From assembly GCA_964458565.1 (NCBI GenBank), contig CAYWJO010000004.1, forward strand, positions 32,001 to 96,000: a stretch of DNA of 64,000 nucleotides, written 5' to 3'. Made by a program: the position numbers and the translations under genes. This stretch comes from an uncultured archaeon (GTDB lineage: Archaea; Asgardarchaeota; Thorarchaeia; Thorarchaeales; Thorarchaeaceae). Under the pieces are notes generated by a model. The model had not been told where the DNA came from. It searched no databases and worked only from the letters and a program-made list of their open reading frames with translations. Shown in pieces: positions 32,439-41,834 of the stretch; the first letter of the stretch is position 1; each line of letters opens with the position of its first letter.

Positions 32439-33770
32439 TCATTTGAGTCCATGTTTCTTAAGGAATTCACCTAATACATCATCAAGGTTAGGTCGTCCAA
32501 TCTCCTGCAAATCATATCTGACTCGTATACTTGGTTTTTTAATATCAATAAGACGTGCAAGATCAATAGGTGTACCAATCACAACAGCATCGACATCTGC
32601 ATTATTGATTGTTTCTTCAAGTTCTTTCATCTGTTTCTTGCCATATCCCATCGCTGGAAGAACATCCTCTAGGTGGTAATATTTCTCAAATGTAACCTCG
32701 ATACTACCAACAGCATAAGGTCTTGGGTCCACTATTATTGCACCCGCTTTTCGTGCGGCTATGTAACCTGCACCATAAGGCATACCACCATGAGTAACGG
32801 TTGGTCCATCTTCAACAACGATAACTCTCTTTCCTCTAATTGTGTTCATTTTCTCAATTCCCAGAGGTGAAGCAGCATCGATAATCGTTGCAGATGGGTT
32901 AGCCTCCATGATGTTCTCACGAACCATCTCCACATCCTCATAGTCCGCAGTATCAATCTTGTTGATAATAACCACATCTGCCATTCTTAGATTTGTTTCA
33001 CCAGGATAGTAGGATATTTCATGACCTGGTCTGTGCGGATCTGTGATGACAATGAGCAAATCCGGTCTATAAAATGGAAAATCGTTGTTTCCACCATCCC
33101 ATGTGATTATATCTGCTTCCTGTTCCGCTTGCTCTAATATTCTACCATAATCAACACCCGCATAGAGGATAACCCCCATGTTGATCATCGGTTCGTATTC
33201 CTCTCTCTCTTCAATGGTGCACTTGTATTTGTCCATATCTTCAAGGGTAGCATATCTTTGAGCAATCTGAGTAGTTAAATCTGGGTCATATGGCATCGGA
33301 TGCCTAATATTTACTGGTTTCAGTCCCATTTTTACCAGAATTTCGTTGACGCGTCGGGATGTTTGGCTCTTACCGCATCCGGTTCTCACAGCACAAACTG
33401 CAATCACTGGTTTGTTGCTTTTTATCATTGTAGTATCAGGACCCATCAAACGAATGTCAGGACCTATTGAATTGACCCATGCAATTTTACCTCCTACTGT
33501 GTCGTAGGAAAGGTCTGAGTATGCTAGTATGCATTGCTCAACTCCAAACTTTTCTACTAATTCAGGTAATCTCTCTTCAGGGTAGATCTTTATTCCATCA
33601 GGGTACAGCTTACCTGAGAGTTCAGGTGGGTACATCCTATCCTCAATACCAGGAATTTGCTCAGCTGTAAAAGCAACGACCTCATAGTCTTCATTATCTC
33701 TAAAGTATGTATTGAAGTTATGAAAATCTCTGCCAGCAGCTCCCATTATGATTACTTTCTTACGAGTCAT
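32439..33770 (-). CDS. COG2403 P-loop protein (cyclic-2,3-diphosphoglycerate-synthetase-related; probable arginine synthetase ArcE type)
   Basis: GAAGRDFHNFN N-terminus, AVRTGCGKS P-loop, RHPMPY, TIEEREEYE, WDGGNND, EDGPT.THGGM and LPAMGY motifs. Confidence 0.85.
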   Translation of the reverse strand: MTRKKVIIMGAAGRDFHNFNTYFRDNEDYEVVAFTAEQIPGIEDRMYPPELSGKLYPDGIKIYPEERLPELVEKFGVEQCILAYSDLSYDTVGGKIAWVNSIGPDIRLMGPDTTMIKSNKPVIAVCAVRTGCGKSQTSRRVNEILVKMGLKPVNIRHPMPYDPDLTTQIAQRYATLEDMDKYKCTIEEREEYEPMINMGVILYAGVDYGRILEQAEQEADIITWDGGNNDFPFYRPDLLIVITDPHRPGHEISYYPGETNLRMADVVIINKIDTADYEDVEMVRENIMEANPSATIIDAASPLGIEKMNTIRGKRVIVVEDGPTVTHGGMPYGAGYIAARKAGAIIVDPRPYAVGSIEVTFEKYYHLEDVLPAMGYGKKQMKELEETINNADVDAVVIGTPIDLARLIDIKKPSIRVRYDLQEIGRPNLDDVLGEFLKKHGLK

Positions 33771-34028
33771 TTACATATCCTGTCCTACTCAATGGATTTT
33801 GACATCACACACTGCCCCAATGAGGCACGATATAAAATGGTCGGTACGAACAGTCCGAATTCAATTGTTCGATTTTAAGAAAAAGTCTCCAAATAATGTT
33901 AATTCGCGTTATCTGATTCCTTTATCGAAAAATCGCAATGCAACACAAACATCTAAATAGGACCTATACGTATTGAAAGGAGATGCGCCTAACACAGGTC
34001 ATCTGTAGCGCTATGCTGGGGTGCTCAA

Positions 34029-34580
34029 GTGAAACTGGTCAAACTTGCCGGGGAGGCTATTCGTCTATTACGTGAGAGTGGGTCTGAAGGAATTCGCAGT
34101 GACGAACTCGCAGAAGCACTAGGAACACCAAAGCGAAGAGTCTATGATATTATTGCTATTCTGAGAGCACTAGGGAATATTCGCACAACACGACGGTATA
34201 ATGGTACCACGATATCCTGGATTGACCGATTCAGAAACTTCGTTCCTAAGGATAGTTATGATGATATAAAACAACAACTCGAAACAGAACGAGAGACCAG
34301 AAAAGGATTGCAGGTGCAAGTTGTTGAATTAAAAGAGCAGCTTAGAGTCACCAGACTAAAAATTCGTCGTGATGTTGAAGCAATTGAAACAATGGAAAAA
34401 ACTGAATTCAACACCTGCCAAATAAAAGTGCGTCCTCTATCAAGAAATGGATTCAAACGAGTGAAGGACTCCGGTATGGAAGTCATTATCGAAACAACCG
34501 AACCTGGTATGATTGTTGATCCAACTGAAGAGGAGATTGATGAGACGGAGGATTTGTTGAAAAGCATCCAAAGGCTATAG
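34029..34580 (+). CDS. E2F/DP-like winged-helix transcription factor with coiled coil
   Basis: KRRVYDII recognition helix, LG.I and ISW, followed by a heptad coiled coil and a beta-rich, acidic C-terminus. Confidence 0.72.
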   Translation: MKLVKLAGEAIRLLRESGSEGIRSDELAEALGTPKRRVYDIIAILRALGNIRTTRRYNGTTISWIDRFRNFVPKDSYDDIKQQLETERETRKGLQVQVVELKEQLRVTRLKIRRDVEAIETMEKTEFNTCQIKVRPLSRNGFKRVKDSGMEVIIETTEPGMIVDPTEEEIDETEDLLKSIQRL

Positions 34581-34587
34581 CAGTCTT

Positions 34588-34974
34588 CTAAACCTTTTTC
34601 CGAATTATAACTTTACTACCTCTTCTAATATCTGAGAGTGTATCTAATTCTTCACAGCTTACCACCTTGCCAATGATATTCACTTGACTAAATGTCTGCA
34701 TATCTTGTACATAGATACACAAGGAATCCCCCAGGGGCATATATGCTATATCTCCTTTTTTCACCTTGTTAGTTGGTTTGAGATTTCCTCGATTAATACC
34801 AAGAGTAATCTTCATTTCACCTCGAAGAAAGGCGGACCTACCTACAATAGGTAATACTGCTTTGATATCTTCCACAATCATTGGTCCTAGAACTCTATCA
34901 AGCACAGCTTCTAGCATCAGAGCCCCATCAAAATCTAGTACAAGTGGTACATCACTCTCAAGCATTTCACTCAC
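34588..34974 (-). CDS. Cyclophilin-like fold protein (DUF369/TM1367-like)
   Basis: P..V..I...LP, V.KGDIAY.PLG..LCI and VNIIGKV patterns. Confidence 0.75.
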   Translation of the reverse strand: MSEMLESDVPLVLDFDGALMLEAVLDRVLGPMIVEDIKAVLPIVGRSAFLRGEMKITLGINRGNLKPTNKVKKGDIAYMPLGDSLCIYVQDMQTFSQVNIIGKVVSCEELDTLSDIRRGSKVIIRKKV

Positions 34975-35092: not shown

Positions 35093-36223
35093 TTGATGGA
35101 TAAGCTTGATGTTGCATTTGTTGTTGATACAACAGGATCTATGAAGGACGATATCAATGCGGTTAGGGATTCACTATTCGAAATTGTTAGTCAAATCACC
35201 GCGAAAACTATAGGGCTGTCAATCCGTTTTGGAATTGTATCGTATAGAGATCATCCTCCTCAGGATCGTACGTATGTAACAAGGACTTTTGATTTCACAG
35301 AAGACATCAAACGAGTGCACAAGGAAATAAGTCATCTAAATCCCTCTGAAGGTGGGGATACTCCTGAAGCTGTTGCTGATGCACTTCATGATGCCCGTGA
35401 AGAAATGTCTTGGGGACCAGATGCATACAAAGTCCTTCTACTGGTAGGAGATGCTCCACCTCATGGCCGACAATATTGTCGATTGGAGGATGATTATTTT
35501 CCTAATGGTTGTCCAAAAGGATTTGATCCTATTCAAGAATTGCAGGAGCTTAAGAGCGAACATGGGGGTACAGTTTTCATCTTTGTTTGCGGATGCAATC
35601 CACTCGTGGAGGAATCTTTTAGAAGAATTGCATCTTCGGTAGAAGATGGGAGATACTATTCACTTTTAGAGGCACATGAATTACCTACGGCGATATTAGA
35701 GATTCTGAAAGGTGTAGGTGATTTAATTGAGTTAGATCGTAAGGTCCTCCAATACTACACGAAACAAGATGGATTATTCAGTGTACCTGAAGGGGCCGAT
35801 GAATTAGGCATAACGGTGCGAGATATGAAAACCTCAATATCACGACTTATTGAAATGGAGCGTATTCCCAGATGGCCACGCGGCCGTCCTCTATCCTCCG
35901 ACAATAACGACTTGAAGGCTGCTCTGGGGGAGATTCCTGATGCTCTAATAGCTGGAAAAGCTGTTAATTATCGCATCAAGATTCGAAATGAAGGTCAAAT
36001 CACTGCCAATGTTCGTGTCCTTGTTTCATTGATTTCTTCGGATGGGATTTCCGAGGTCATAAACGAATTACATGAAATAGCACCAGATAGTTCGCAAACA
36101 CTGTCCCTTCGCCTTATTCCTATGGTTGATACACCAGGTCGTGCAAGTATCAGAGTTGAAGTACTATATGGATCAAAGACAATAGAATCTCAAATCTATG
36201 AAACAAGAATATTCACATCTTAG
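35093..36223 (+). CDS. vWA-domain protein with C-terminal wHTH and Ig-like domains
   Basis: DTTGSM MIDAS, YRDHPPQD, GGDTPEA and GDAPPHG motifs; then an HTH-like segment (GADELGITVRDMKTSISRL) and a beta-sandwich. Confidence 0.85.
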   Translation: MMDKLDVAFVVDTTGSMKDDINAVRDSLFEIVSQITAKTIGLSIRFGIVSYRDHPPQDRTYVTRTFDFTEDIKRVHKEISHLNPSEGGDTPEAVADALHDAREEMSWGPDAYKVLLLVGDAPPHGRQYCRLEDDYFPNGCPKGFDPIQELQELKSEHGGTVFIFVCGCNPLVEESFRRIASSVEDGRYYSLLEAHELPTAILEILKGVGDLIELDRKVLQYYTKQDGLFSVPEGADELGITVRDMKTSISRLIEMERIPRWPRGRPLSSDNNDLKAALGEIPDALIAGKAVNYRIKIRNEGQITANVRVLVSLISSDGISEVINELHEIAPDSSQTLSLRLIPMVDTPGRASIRVEVLYGSKTIESQIYETRIFTS

Positions 36224-36229
36224 ATCATA

Positions 36230-38875
36230 TTATTTCTGCTCAACTGATGTTGGGATTAATGATTCTATCGCGCTTACTAGGTATCCCAGAAATTGAAAAT
36301 GGAAATATCTCTCAAGTGAATAGATTCTACTTCTAATACTCCTATGTAGATTTTTATATTCATCTACATTAAATTCAGAGCCGATTCCGAATACATCCAA
36401 TGCATATCTTTCATGGTTTCCAATCGCACGAAGATACCCTTCCATCTCTTCAGAACTCTCAATTCCTCCATCTGAAAAAAGCAATATCAAGGTGGGACGC
36501 TCAGCACCCAGATCCTCAAGGTATTCAGCAATTGCCCGGTATGCATTAGATTCATTCTCTTTTTCTAAATCACCTTTTGTTGTGTCAAGAAGTGTATAGA
36601 CAAGAGATGTTAATACTTCGTCTGAAGAAATATCATTGTCAAAATCTATAAAATTCTGTACTTCGTTTCCCTTTTGAACTGAAAATTTTGAAAGGTTGTC
36701 TCCATTTAAAACCAAGCCTAATTTGCCTTCCGTCCTATTCATCATCACAAAATTGAGAATAAGTAGAACATTAATAATCGCACATTGTCGTCTTGTTATT
36801 GTTTTGTCCAATGAATCAATGAATCTGCTAATCTCTGGCACAATTTCAGAGATACTATCTAATGATTCTGTAAGTGAACTAAAATCATCGATGGTGATAT
36901 CCGTGTTGTCTAAATTCCGGCCCATCGAAATACAAAGGATGATGTTGAAATCCCGCAGGGATTGAGCTGGTCTAATTTGGATAGTACCAGTGATTATCCC
37001 CACCTCTCCTAAACCTAATTCTGGTGTTGATGAACTAATTACACATTTCATTTCTGGATCATGTTCAAGAGGACGTACAGCACTATTCCTACCAATATAC
37101 AAATTTTGTAAGAACTCCTGAATTTCAGACCTATGCAGATGCAGATATGAGATGATTTCAAATCCCGATCTAAGTGGTATCTGTTCAAAGGAGAAAACCG
37201 ACTGCTCTAATCGTGTGACTTCCGAATCATATTTGACCAAGTCCACCTGTTTGTCAACAAGGTCGAACGCATGTGCATCCTTTTTGGAAACCAAGACGCT
37301 TTTCTTTATACATGATGAATTCGTGTTGATATTACCTGCGCACCATTGACCAGATTCTGGATTCATTGCTAATACTAAGTCGTCTTCTATTAGCCCTGTC
37401 GCTCTGAGGTCCTCTGGACAAATTTGCAATGTGTTTCTCCTAATCTCCTCAGGTACAACAGCGAAATGAAGTGCTGAGACAATATCTTGCGCTTCTTTTA
37501 CTTGTAGTATTTTCAATAATTCTTGAGTATAAGCTGATAGATGCGATGGTGAGTCAAATGTATGTCCTGAGGTTGTTGTTGCAGCTTTAATCAGCGTGGT
37601 CATTACTTCAGATGTTCTCGATATTAATGAATCAGTAAATGTGCGACGCCATCCAGTTAACCTCAGTGTTTGGTCTCGATCAATATAAAGAGCAGTTGAA
37701 ATTAATGACTTTGACTTATTATCTTGAAGTGTTACAATGAGACTATTCAAATCAATGTAATCATCATCTGTTGCAATTAAATGATCACATGAAACAATAT
37801 GCTTGATATTCTGTGATGCGAGTACCTGTAGTATTCTTTGAAAATCTCCTAATGCAGAGCGACCTAAATTACCCTCAGCTGTAACTGATATATCATTTTC
37901 AATATAATGCATTGAATTAGGTCTTATCGGCAATCTTCGCAGAATGTTCGTACCTAGAATGCGTTGTATATCTTGAGGTCTAGCATTTAATTTTCGACTC
38001 AGTAAGTAGCTAAGTACTTCAGATATACTATTTCCCATTGCTGTATTGGGATATCCGGATGCAAAAACAATTCTTGTTGACCATTCATCACCTTGTGTTC
38101 GTTTGAGATAGTTGATAAGAGTTGAAAGAGACGATAGAGTACTTCCAGAAGTTAACACTCGACTATTTGGGATATCGACTAGTTTTACTATATCGTTCCC
38201 CCAAGACCGATGATCCGTTGTGGATAGGAATAATTCTGGTGAAGGGAGTCCTCCGTCTTTCACAGAGATTAACCAAGAAAGAAGGATATCAAGATCATCT
38301 CGGGATTCCAAATTTACAAATATGGGATATTTCGATTGAATGTGATTTATGAGATAGCTTCGCATGGTACTATCCATTAAATTTTCGAGATCACGCGAAT
38401 CACATGAACATGCCCAACCTGGTTTTGATATTGCGTCCAATCGCATATCTTGAACATGGTAAAATCTTGGTGAGTGAGGTGGACACATCGCCCATTCATA
38501 AGCCAAGTTTATATTATTCTGACGCTGTGATTTTGGTAATAGTGTGGTTCCGATGTTGAATAGTGGGTGGGTAAGGTAATAATCAATGAACCATCCAATA
38601 TCCAAAGCATTTGACAGAGTTCTATAGATATCTCCTAGAATAGGTGGTTTCTTGAGGTATTCATACGCCCGTCTGGGTATATATCTGAATGCGGTAGCGT
38701 ATGTACCAACGTAATCGAAAAGGCGATTTTCAACTCTATTGATATACATCAAGAGCTTCTCAGGACCAAACGACCTAGTTTGGTCCCCAATATGAATCTC
38801 ACCAAGGTTGACAACTGCATCAATTAAAACGAACCTTCTGATATCTCCAGTTTCTGAATCCTCGGCGACCAACAT
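36230..38875 (-). CDS. Fusion of degenerate amidohydrolase + CDC48-N-like double-psi barrel + degenerate vWA
   Basis: Visible paralogy to both 38996-40498 and 40545-41834; metal ligands lost (DAVVN, FASGY, CISMG). Confidence 0.72.
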   Translation of the reverse strand: MLVAEDSETGDIRRFVLIDAVVNLGEIHIGDQTRSFGPEKLLMYINRVENRLFDYVGTYATAFRYIPRRAYEYLKKPPILGDIYRTLSNALDIGWFIDYYLTHPLFNIGTTLLPKSQRQNNINLAYEWAMCPPHSPRFYHVQDMRLDAISKPGWACSCDSRDLENLMDSTMRSYLINHIQSKYPIFVNLESRDDLDILLSWLISVKDGGLPSPELFLSTTDHRSWGNDIVKLVDIPNSRVLTSGSTLSSLSTLINYLKRTQGDEWSTRIVFASGYPNTAMGNSISEVLSYLLSRKLNARPQDIQRILGTNILRRLPIRPNSMHYIENDISVTAEGNLGRSALGDFQRILQVLASQNIKHIVSCDHLIATDDDYIDLNSLIVTLQDNKSKSLISTALYIDRDQTLRLTGWRRTFTDSLISRTSEVMTTLIKAATTTSGHTFDSPSHLSAYTQELLKILQVKEAQDIVSALHFAVVPEEIRRNTLQICPEDLRATGLIEDDLVLAMNPESGQWCAGNINTNSSCIKKSVLVSKKDAHAFDLVDKQVDLVKYDSEVTRLEQSVFSFEQIPLRSGFEIISYLHLHRSEIQEFLQNLYIGRNSAVRPLEHDPEMKCVISSSTPELGLGEVGIITGTIQIRPAQSLRDFNIILCISMGRNLDNTDITIDDFSSLTESLDSISEIVPEISRFIDSLDKTITRRQCAIINVLLILNFVMMNRTEGKLGLVLNGDNLSKFSVQKGNEVQNFIDFDNDISSDEVLTSLVYTLLDTTKGDLEKENESNAYRAIAEYLEDLGAERPTLILLFSDGGIESSEEMEGYLRAIGNHERYALDVFGIGSEFNVDEYKNLHRSIRSRIYSLERYFHFQFLGYLVSAIESLIPTSVEQK

Positions 38876-40544: not shown

Positions 40545-41834
40545 ATTACATCGAAATTATCTCTGGAAATTATTGATGGTGGAGACCTCAAGGGATTTGT
40601 TCATCTCAATCACGAGAAAGCAGAACAATTAGGCGCTGAGTTTGGTTCGATTGTTGTCTTTGAGGACCCGCAATCTGCGTTTTGGGGTGCTGGTGAAGTG
40701 CGTACAAATAATGAGGTGTCTGATGATAAAATCATGATAGATTCTCTTGTTTTAGAAGCATCACTCCTTATGGATGGAGATCAAGTAGAAGTTTCGTTAT
40801 ACGATGAGGATATGATTGCACTGGAATATGTTGAATTTGGGCTAAAGCCATTAACGGAGGAAGCAAACACAGAGGATTTGGTCACACGCGCTGCTGAGGA
40901 GGTTGAGAATCTGGAACGCCTTATTGGTGGTCGTTTGGTTTATCCAGGCATGTCTTTCAATTGGCCTGCCTTACAAGCAAAGGTGGAAATTATCAAGACG
41001 CGTCCCCATTTGACTGGAAAGAATTTCGCGAAGTTAGCTTTTGAGGCACTAAAGGAGAGAACTGGATACGAATTCAAGACCGTTGGGATTGCGACCCCAT
41101 TTAACGCAGTTCTATGTATTGATACAAGTGGATCGATGAAGACGACAGATGTTCCTGTAAAGGATATTGCTCACGCTCGTGAAGGGCTCAAAGACCTTGC
41201 AGGAGATAATCCTGAAGTACAGGAATTTCTTGATAGGTTCAAAGAGGGATCCAGAGTCAGTCGTGCTGAGGCTGCTGCAATGGCTGTCCTACTCTATCTA
41301 GCAGAGAAAGTTGGACGTGGATATGGAGAGAAAGTTGCCATAGTAACTTTCGAGAAAGATGTTAGTATAATGACTTTCATGAATACGGTTTCGGGACAAG
41401 TTCAACCATTTGTAGAGTGCACAGGGCGAGACAAATCCCTTGGTCTTCAGATTGTGAGTACTCATGTTGTCGATAAGGTTGAGGAAGGTGGTACTCTAAC
41501 GGATATGGGTAATGCGTTGAGCAAAGCAAGGGATGTGATCCAAGAATTCGGGGACTCTACTAAACCAACTATGCTCATTCTTCTTACTGATGGTATGACC
41601 ACTTCTGGTCCACCTCCATTGAAGGTTCTTAAGGAGCGATATAGCGACCTTAAGCATCTTGTAGTTTATTGTATTGGTCTTGGAGAACGTAGCGAGATTG
41701 ATGAAGAATTAATGCTGGCTCTATCACAACATGGTAATGGCACTTATCGTCATGTCGACAATATGAGAGATCTCTTAGAGTGGTATGGTCGCCTCGCTAC
41801 AGAATTTGCTGTTGTTATCAAGGGATCCGAATGA
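40545..41834 (+). CDS. CDC48-N-like double-psi barrel + vWA protein (probable ATT start)
   Basis: Frame is open 51 codons upstream of the GTG at 40698, back to ATT 40545, which lies 7 nt after GGAGG; intact DTSGS...T...TDG MIDAS. Confidence 0.8.
   Translation: MTSKLSLEIIDGGDLKGFVHLNHEKAEQLGAEFGSIVVFEDPQSAFWGAGEVRTNNEVSDDKIMIDSLVLEASLLMDGDQVEVSLYDEDMIALEYVEFGLKPLTEEANTEDLVTRAAEEVENLERLIGGRLVYPGMSFNWPALQAKVEIIKTRPHLTGKNFAKLAFEALKERTGYEFKTVGIATPFNAVLCIDTSGSMKTTDVPVKDIAHAREGLKDLAGDNPEVQEFLDRFKEGSRVSRAEAAAMAVLLYLAEKVGRGYGEKVAIVTFEKDVSIMTFMNTVSGQVQPFVECTGRDKSLGLQIVSTHVVDKVEEGGTLTDMGNALSKARDVIQEFGDSTKPTMLILLTDGMTTSGPPPLKVLKERYSDLKHLVVYCIGLGERSEIDEELMLALSQHGNGTYRHVDNMRDLLEWYGRLATEFAVVIKGSE

Follow-up and report, generated by a model that had tools for sequence, protein, structure and literature searches.

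The gene at positions 34029-34580 of a 64,000-nucleotide stretch of DNA from an uncultured archaeon of the family Thorarchaeaceae (hereafter the window) encodes a small protein whose N-terminal winged helix, as judged from profile comparisons, belongs to the E2F/DP family of transcription factors. On balance, we favored the view that this protein is the Thorarchaeota ortholog of the published Asgard E2F/DP family, that it acts as a homodimer, and that its likely targets are palindromic TTTSGCGCSAAA sites found elsewhere in the source genome. The translation of the open reading frame (ORF) agreed exactly with the sequence quoted in the original prediction, an earlier reading of this DNA that had proposed an E2F/DP-like transcription factor in an archaeon. 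The ORF is a real gene and goes far beyond a chance ORF, because 86 protein clusters align with it over the full length at 46-78% identity; all of these clusters contain the Pfam domain PF02319, and the nearest relatives carry Thorarchaeota names.

E2F-like proteins in Asgard archaea are already established, and the headline of the original prediction adds nothing new in this respect. E2F/DP homologs with conserved base-contacting residues have been reported in most Asgard groups (Eme et al., 2023, Nature 618:992, PMC10307638, Supplementary Information 4.1.5), and that report credits the first mention of an Asgard E2F to de Mendoza and Sebe-Pedros (2019). The Asgard homologs were described there as having neither the dimerization domain nor the regulator-binding domains and were expected to recognize similar DNA motifs (Eme et al., 2023, PMC10307638); their existence was restated in a 2024 review (PMC7617429). 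The available part of the eukaryotic signature protein table of Eme et al. (2023) lists Thorarchaeota/Thorarchaeia orthologs of the same length and architecture (arCOG02749), and one of the proteins in it is identical to match P0013 of our searches, a full-length homolog 61% identical to the 183-aa protein. Some members of the family already bear the NCBI name "E2F family transcription factor." What our study adds to the literature, in the form of predictions or inferences, is a C-terminal module predicted to pair with itself, canonical E2F sites that Thorarchaeota genomes have in common, and a cyclophilin-like gene retained as a neighbor.

The family assignment was derived from comparisons of the protein with Pfam and NCBIfam models, and of its family profile with PDB sequences and 1.84 billion representative proteins. 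The results showed that the best Pfam match was E2F_TDP (PF02319), which scored 36.8 bits against a cut-off of 25.7 (E-value 3e-9) and aligned residues 7-65 with profile positions 9-64 of 65, that is, with the whole domain rather than the motif alone. The Pfam TrmB model (PF01978) stayed under its cut-off (15.9 vs. 25.6), and so did the NCBIfam TrmB model NF040851 (12.4 vs. 600). In the PDB, the only winged-helix chains found were those of E2F8 (1.2e-7), E2F4 (1.8e-3), and DP2 (0.36). The search of 1.84 billion proteins returned 109 matches, about 37 of which were Asgard relatives, with names including Loki-, Baldr-, Jord-, and Thorarchaeia, and the rest of E2F type. The scanned E2F-type matches, one of them a bird E2F2, carried E2F_TDP and nearly all of them also E2F_CC-MB (PF16421). 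The E2F-type motif RRxYDxxNV was present in 57 of the 72 distant matches, among which no DP-type protein occurred, and neither the TrmB nor the MarR family appeared among the matches of the two profile searches. Outside its own clade, the protein therefore had its nearest relatives, in both searches, among E2F/DP proteins and not among other winged-helix families, as the original prediction had proposed.

It had also been cautioned in that prediction that TrmB-type helix-turn-helix domains contain RVYD, and that convergence should be excluded by profile comparison. An ordinary archaeal winged-helix regulator of the TrmB, MarR, or HTH_11 type, whose RRVYD motif arose convergently with that of E2F, would be in keeping with the score of HTH_11, which was just above its own cut-off (28.2 vs. 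25), with one ortholog named "TrmB" by JGI, and with the top structural matches, which were MarR, ArsR, and Z-alpha domains. Fold searches, however, do not separate winged-helix families: those with the whole monomer (Foldseek against the PDB; VIA-align against 48,161 chains) returned only generic winged helices (MarR, ArsR, Z-alpha, TtgV) and were rejected as a means of family assignment. Against convergence, E2F_TDP leads the Pfam matches by 8.6 bits with TrmB below its cut-off, the match extends over the whole domain beyond the RRVYD motif, and both profile searches lead to E2F proteins. The convergence concern was thus answered by the profile comparisons, which favor E2F/DP, and we considered this explanation highly improbable.

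Next to the winged helix, the remainder of the protein also has a conserved architecture. In the AlphaFold2 model of the whole protein (38-sequence alignment), a confident winged helix (residues 1-66) and one 42-residue helix (residues 74-115) were followed by a weaker beta region. When residues 66-183 were modeled alone with a broader 39-sequence alignment, the mean pLDDT rose to 86.6, and the model comprised the helix 74-115, four short strands within residues 133-164, an acidic stretch, and a terminal helix (residues 172-182). The models agree with the domain order that had been read from the letters, with a winged helix, a long helix, beta strands, and an acidic stretch. Residues R36, R37, Y39, D40, and W64 were invariant in 38 Thorarchaeota orthologs and in 16 sequences from several Asgard classes, and the succession of winged helix, coiled coil, and beta module with an IE(T/A)xxPGxIVxP block was common to Thor-, Loki-, Baldr-, and Jordarchaeia-named sequences. 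The PF02319 domain was detected in 124 of 301 genomes sampled across the phylum and in 68 of the 76 genomes of the window's own family, and it was not found in three large families (0/68, 0/28, and 0/21 genomes). Two PF02319 matches were seen in some Asgard genomes (G044, G048, G053, G058, G061, G148, G181, G235, and G250), and the open frames of family f14 are short, at 120-144 aa (121 aa in L032), and apparently lack the C-terminal module; these two-copy genomes or short frames could hold paralog pairs bearing on the origin of the E2F/DP heterodimer.

According to structure prediction, the C-terminal half probably pairs with itself. The original prediction had supposed a "probably homodimeric" protein and suggested that the dimer be modeled. 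In the homodimer prediction for residues 66-183, a score of 0.49 was obtained versus 0.00 for the best control. Twenty of 30 proteins whose structures were solved as pairs attained that mark, compared with 1 of 23 proteins solved as single chains. The runs agreed in their contacts to at least 44%, and the partner pLDDT was 54 or more. The predicted contacts 84-84, 94-94, and 101-101 correspond to an in-register parallel coiled coil, after which strands of the two subunits are predicted to pair (contacts 130-155, 132-154, 127-163, and 163-163). The source genome (3.7 Mb, 93% complete) contains PF02319 in a single copy (genome scan, 38 bits), which, along with a homodimer prediction that passes its controls, argues for the homodimer supposed earlier and against an obligate heterodimer with a DP paralog.

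The region following the winged helix had been likened to the coiled-coil/marked-box (CC-MB) dimerization region of E2F. A coiled coil and a beta module were indeed predicted, whereas PF16421 (E2F_CC-MB) was not detected in the 183-aa protein at E-values up to 10, so that the marked-box part of the claim found no support from this Pfam model. In a wider reading, the whole protein, and not the winged helix alone, would be homologous to typical E2F. The coiled coil and the beta segments occur in the same order as in typical E2F, and the predicted dimer, a parallel coiled coil and then inter-subunit strands, has the general layout of E2F1-DP1. With HMMER, the Asgard profile aligned with a short E2F (P0136) over query residues 3-177, through its PF16421 domain. 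With hhalign, a broad Asgard C-terminal profile and 25 E2F CC-MB domains gave a collinear alignment of 83 columns (probability 25%, pairwise P 8e-4), in which vIIETxePGiIVdP was paired with liAIKAPkGTxLEVPDP. A Foldseek search of 350,542 PDB chains with the C-terminal model had as its first match 2aze_B, the E2F1 CC-MB chain (110 columns). The hhalign probability is owed to the coiled coil, and in a profile comparison, which was discarded, the beta module on its own matched the E2F marked box no better than expected by chance. These comparisons are suggestive of homology between the C-terminal module and the E2F CC-MB domain, and homology of the whole protein to typical E2F was held tentatively, at somewhat below an even chance. 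As a separate observation, the E2F with the longest alignment to the Asgard profile (query residues 3-177) is a 252-aa protein with E2F_TDP and E2F_CC-MB, encoded beside a PIP5K gene on a compact, apparently intron-free metagenome contig of 5175 bp (L014:3780-4538), which could stem from a small eukaryote, a giant virus, or an archaeon.

The candidate target sites were found in the intergenic DNA of the source genome, which contains three copies of TTTSGCGCSAAA, versus 0.08 expected (P 7e-5), and no copy of control palindromes with other cores. One of them, TTTCGCGCCAAA (C2:215256), lies between thyA (thymidylate synthase, PF00303; 106 bp away) and the divergent trx-nrdD genes (PF13192, PF13597), which comprise a thioredoxin-like gene followed by an anaerobic ribonucleotide reductase gene. 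In mammals, the DHFR promoter has this identical 12-mer as its E2F site (PMC3205837, PMC2784457). The 250 bp upstream of thyA were then compared in 30 Thorarchaeota genomes with ThyA proteins of 62-69% identity. The results revealed that 28 of the 30 genomes have an SGCGCS core at a distance of 87-240 bp upstream of thyA, at a background of 0.045 per 250 bp, while control cores were present in 0/30, 3/30, and 1/30. The consensus of the thyA site is TTTGGCGCGRAA, and its flanks are unconserved. At the scale of genomes, the palindrome outnumbered a reversed control word by 100 to 22 in 77 genomes of f1 (Thorarchaeota, gene present), and the corresponding counts were 42 and 28 in 117 genomes of three families in which the gene was not found (f9, f5, and f22).

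A second exact palindrome, TTTGGCGCCAAA (C56:9070; L038:1971-1982), the best conserved of these E2F-type sites, precedes c0, a Thorarchaeota-specific gene of 260 aa (C56:8125-8907, minus strand; L038:1026-1808). Comparison of the c0 product with Pfam, NCBIfam, and PDB sequences gave no match, and its only relatives were Atlas clusters without names. Thirty c0 orthologs (40-52% identical) were fetched by protein similarity, so that the sample was not chosen for the site, and the upstream palindrome was exact in 23 of them, present with at most one mismatch in 27, and with at most two mismatches in 29. About 50 bp downstream of this palindrome, there is a second conserved inverted repeat, CATAC-N(6-9)-GTATG. 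The third exact palindrome, TTTGGCGCGAAA (C11:14334-14345; L041:2035-2046), is flanked by convergent genes and closely follows the 3' end of a TrmO-like gene; two further Thorarchaeota genomes (L085, L098) have both the site and the same gene neighborhood (clusters c6, c7, and c8), in which no target is obvious. There are also two sites with two mismatches (C25:21404 and C3:138395; loci L183 and L182), one between PAC4-like and XPD/Rad3-type helicase genes and the other 15 bp before an ESCRT-II (EAP30/Vps36)-like gene of 778 aa; both are too degenerate to interpret.

We inferred that the protein binds the TTTSGCGCSAAA sites from three features: its RRxYD residues are invariant, its predicted dimer is symmetric, and the site is identical to the E2F consensus. 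A number of observations weigh against this view. What ties the protein to the sites is solely its resemblance to E2F, and another regulator could bind them; the homodimer prediction may in part go back to solved coiled-coil complexes that the structure predictor has memorized. Half-sites were not enriched in intergenic DNA relative to a Markov expectation (TTTSGCGC, 13 vs. 10.8; TTTSSCGC, 24 vs. 20.1). No palindrome with at most one mismatch occurs in the region 33771-34028 upstream of the gene or anywhere in the window. Three Thorarchaeota genomes (91-92% complete) without a detected gene keep the sites, although the gene may be unassembled. Extension of the site beyond Thorarchaeota failed in the families examined: there was no site at nrdD in four other E2F-positive families (0/6 loci), with 0/5 in E2F-negative families; f15, f16, and f19 showed no palindrome excess; and thyA is patchy outside Thorarchaeota, with four f9 and two f19/f16 loci lacking the site in upstream DNA of only 19-37% G+C. 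In f12, a recurrent palindrome was rejected as a regulatory site, being part of the coding sequence of undecaprenyl-diphosphate synthase (UppS), the N-terminal coding sequence of which holds TTTGGCGCCAAA as L-W-R-Q-I codons, a trap for motif counts. An unrelated feature of these f12 loci (L144-L152) is an Arf/Ras-like GTPase gene with three Roadblock/LC7 genes directly upstream of the synthase gene.

These observations could be accommodated if the protein does belong to the E2F family of winged-helix proteins while a different regulator uses the conserved TTTSGCGCSAAA sites, the protein itself binding another motif or acting as a general DNA- or chromatin-associated protein. Such an explanation would fit the missing co-variation between protein and sites, the link of site and target that does not extend to other families carrying the gene, the sites kept where no gene copy was detected, and the siteless gene of the protein itself. 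It is at odds, however, with the invariance of the base-contacting RRxYD residues, for which similar DNA motifs were also expected by Eme et al. (2023, PMC10307638), and with the conserved site being exactly the symmetric, high-affinity E2F word, which fits a symmetric dimer. Furthermore, f9 is the largest of the families lacking the gene, and each of the 19 palindromes examined there falls within an unrelated coding region, the pattern of chance occurrences. Taken together, we judged it unlikely that the sites belong to another regulator.

In the favored model of a homodimeric E2F-type regulator, the protein would act as a small transcription factor with an E2F-type RRxYD recognition helix in its N-terminal winged helix, and the parallel coiled coil and beta module, to which both subunits contribute, would hold two copies together. 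No DP-like partner would be needed, because the C-terminal half is proposed to form the homodimer, and the symmetric dimer with its two identical E2F-type heads would read a symmetric E2F site. Its likeliest targets would be the sites conserved some 90-170 bp upstream of thyA, in the region common to the divergent trx-nrdD, and those upstream of c0. As the sites lie well upstream of the expected promoter position, activation seems more probable than repression.

Comparison with known systems places this protein among the Asgard E2F/DP homologs (arCOG02749), which, so far as the accessible part of the source goes, are of the same family, length, and architecture; there is no difference in kind, and the predicted self-pairing module and the candidate target sites are what is added here. 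With eukaryotic E2F1-6 (PF02319 plus PF16421), it shares an RRxYD winged helix followed directly by a coiled coil, a candidate site equal to that of the DHFR promoter, and candidate targets among genes for dNTP synthesis. In contrast to them, it has no detectable PF16421, occurs in single copy without a DP partner, and ends 17 residues past the beta module, where the eukaryotic proteins have a tail for transactivation and pocket-protein (Rb) binding. E2F7 and E2F8, the latter being the best PDB match, bind DNA without DP through two E2F-type winged helices per site; their domains are in tandem on one chain, whereas those of the Thorarchaeota protein would be on two chains, predicted to be joined by a coiled coil. 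DP1 and DP2 belong to the same winged-helix family with RRxYD but are more distant, as indicated by the DP2 E-value and by the distant matches, which included no DP-type protein. The TrmB family (PF01978) is similar in having a winged helix of comparable size followed by a coiled-coil-like helix and differs by its below-cut-off scores and by its sugar-binding C-terminal domain, which the Thorarchaeota protein lacks.

With a conserved E2F site before the thymidylate synthase and ribonucleotide reductase genes of Thorarchaeota, pre-eukaryotic E2F control of S-phase genes becomes testable, and the predicted self-pairing module offers a concrete model for a possible origin of the E2F/DP heterodimer from a homodimeric ancestor. 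Both points are predictions, confined to one Asgard family. The broader scenario, in which an E2F architecture with an ancestral CC-MB and the link between E2F palindrome and DNA-precursor genes both predate eukaryotes, and in which the E2F/DP heterodimer came from a duplicated Asgard homodimer that activated nucleotide synthesis, is speculative and rather doubtful at present.

The original prediction had also hinted at autoregulation through a TTCGCG core upstream of the gene. The core is present at 33903-33908 as a single hexamer, and the same hexamer occurs 631 times in the 3.7-Mb genome. Its position was not conserved in 13 orthologous upstream regions, and, with the window devoid of the palindrome, autoregulation through TTCGCG was rejected. 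The features of the gene and its surroundings are listed in Table 1.

Table 1. Positions of the E2F/DP-family gene, the parts of its product, and the adjoining features in the window.
Feature	Position	Strand	Remarks
E2F/DP-family gene	34029..34580	+	GTG start, 183 aa; conserved over the full length in Thorarchaeota, more distant in other Asgard classes
Winged-helix DNA-binding domain, residues 1-66	34029..34226	+	Pfam E2F_TDP
RRVYD motif, residues 36-40, recognition helix	34134..34148	+	R36, R37, Y39, and D40 invariant; aligns with RRIYD of E2F8 and E2F4
Long helix, residues 74-115	34248..34373	+	pLDDT up to 96; in-register parallel coiled coil in the predicted homodimer
Beta-rich module, residues 123-166	34395..34526	+	Conserved IE(T/A)xxPGxIVDP block; predicted inter-subunit strand pairing
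Acidic linker and C-terminal helix, residues 167-183	34527..34577	+	
Intergenic region upstream of the E2F-like gene	33771..34028	.	Common to the divergent cobW-like GTPase gene (32439-33770, -)
Cyclophilin-like gene (PF04126, 128 aa)	34588..34974	-	Tail-to-tail with the E2F-like gene, stop codons 7 bp apart

The tail-to-tail arrangement of the E2F-like and cyclophilin-like genes is conserved well beyond the window. It was present in 17 of 21 loci (12 kb each) from nine GTDB families, with other neighbors varying, and a coordinate comparison found the pair in every listed genome of f1, f8, f15, f16, f19, f21, and f30, which together with f6 makes eight Asgard families. If a genome carries PF04126 twice, it is the divergent copy that adjoins the E2F-like gene. 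The cyclophilin-like protein may be a functional partner of the E2F-like protein. A phyletic coupling of the two was considered and rejected: PF04126 was found in 215 of the 301 genomes, some of them from families that have no E2F, and only the adjacency is conserved. In f12 and f3 (L031, L034, and L035), the convergent neighbor is a gene for a PDCD5-like double-stranded DNA-binding protein (PF01984) instead of the cyclophilin-like gene. Further along the window, the genes at 35093-36223 (+), 36230-38875 (-), and 40698-41834 (+) encode two von Willebrand factor A-domain (VWA) proteins and one 881-aa protein without a Pfam match, and a VWA gene and the large gene (clusters c4 and c2) adjoin the pair in most Thorarchaeota loci.
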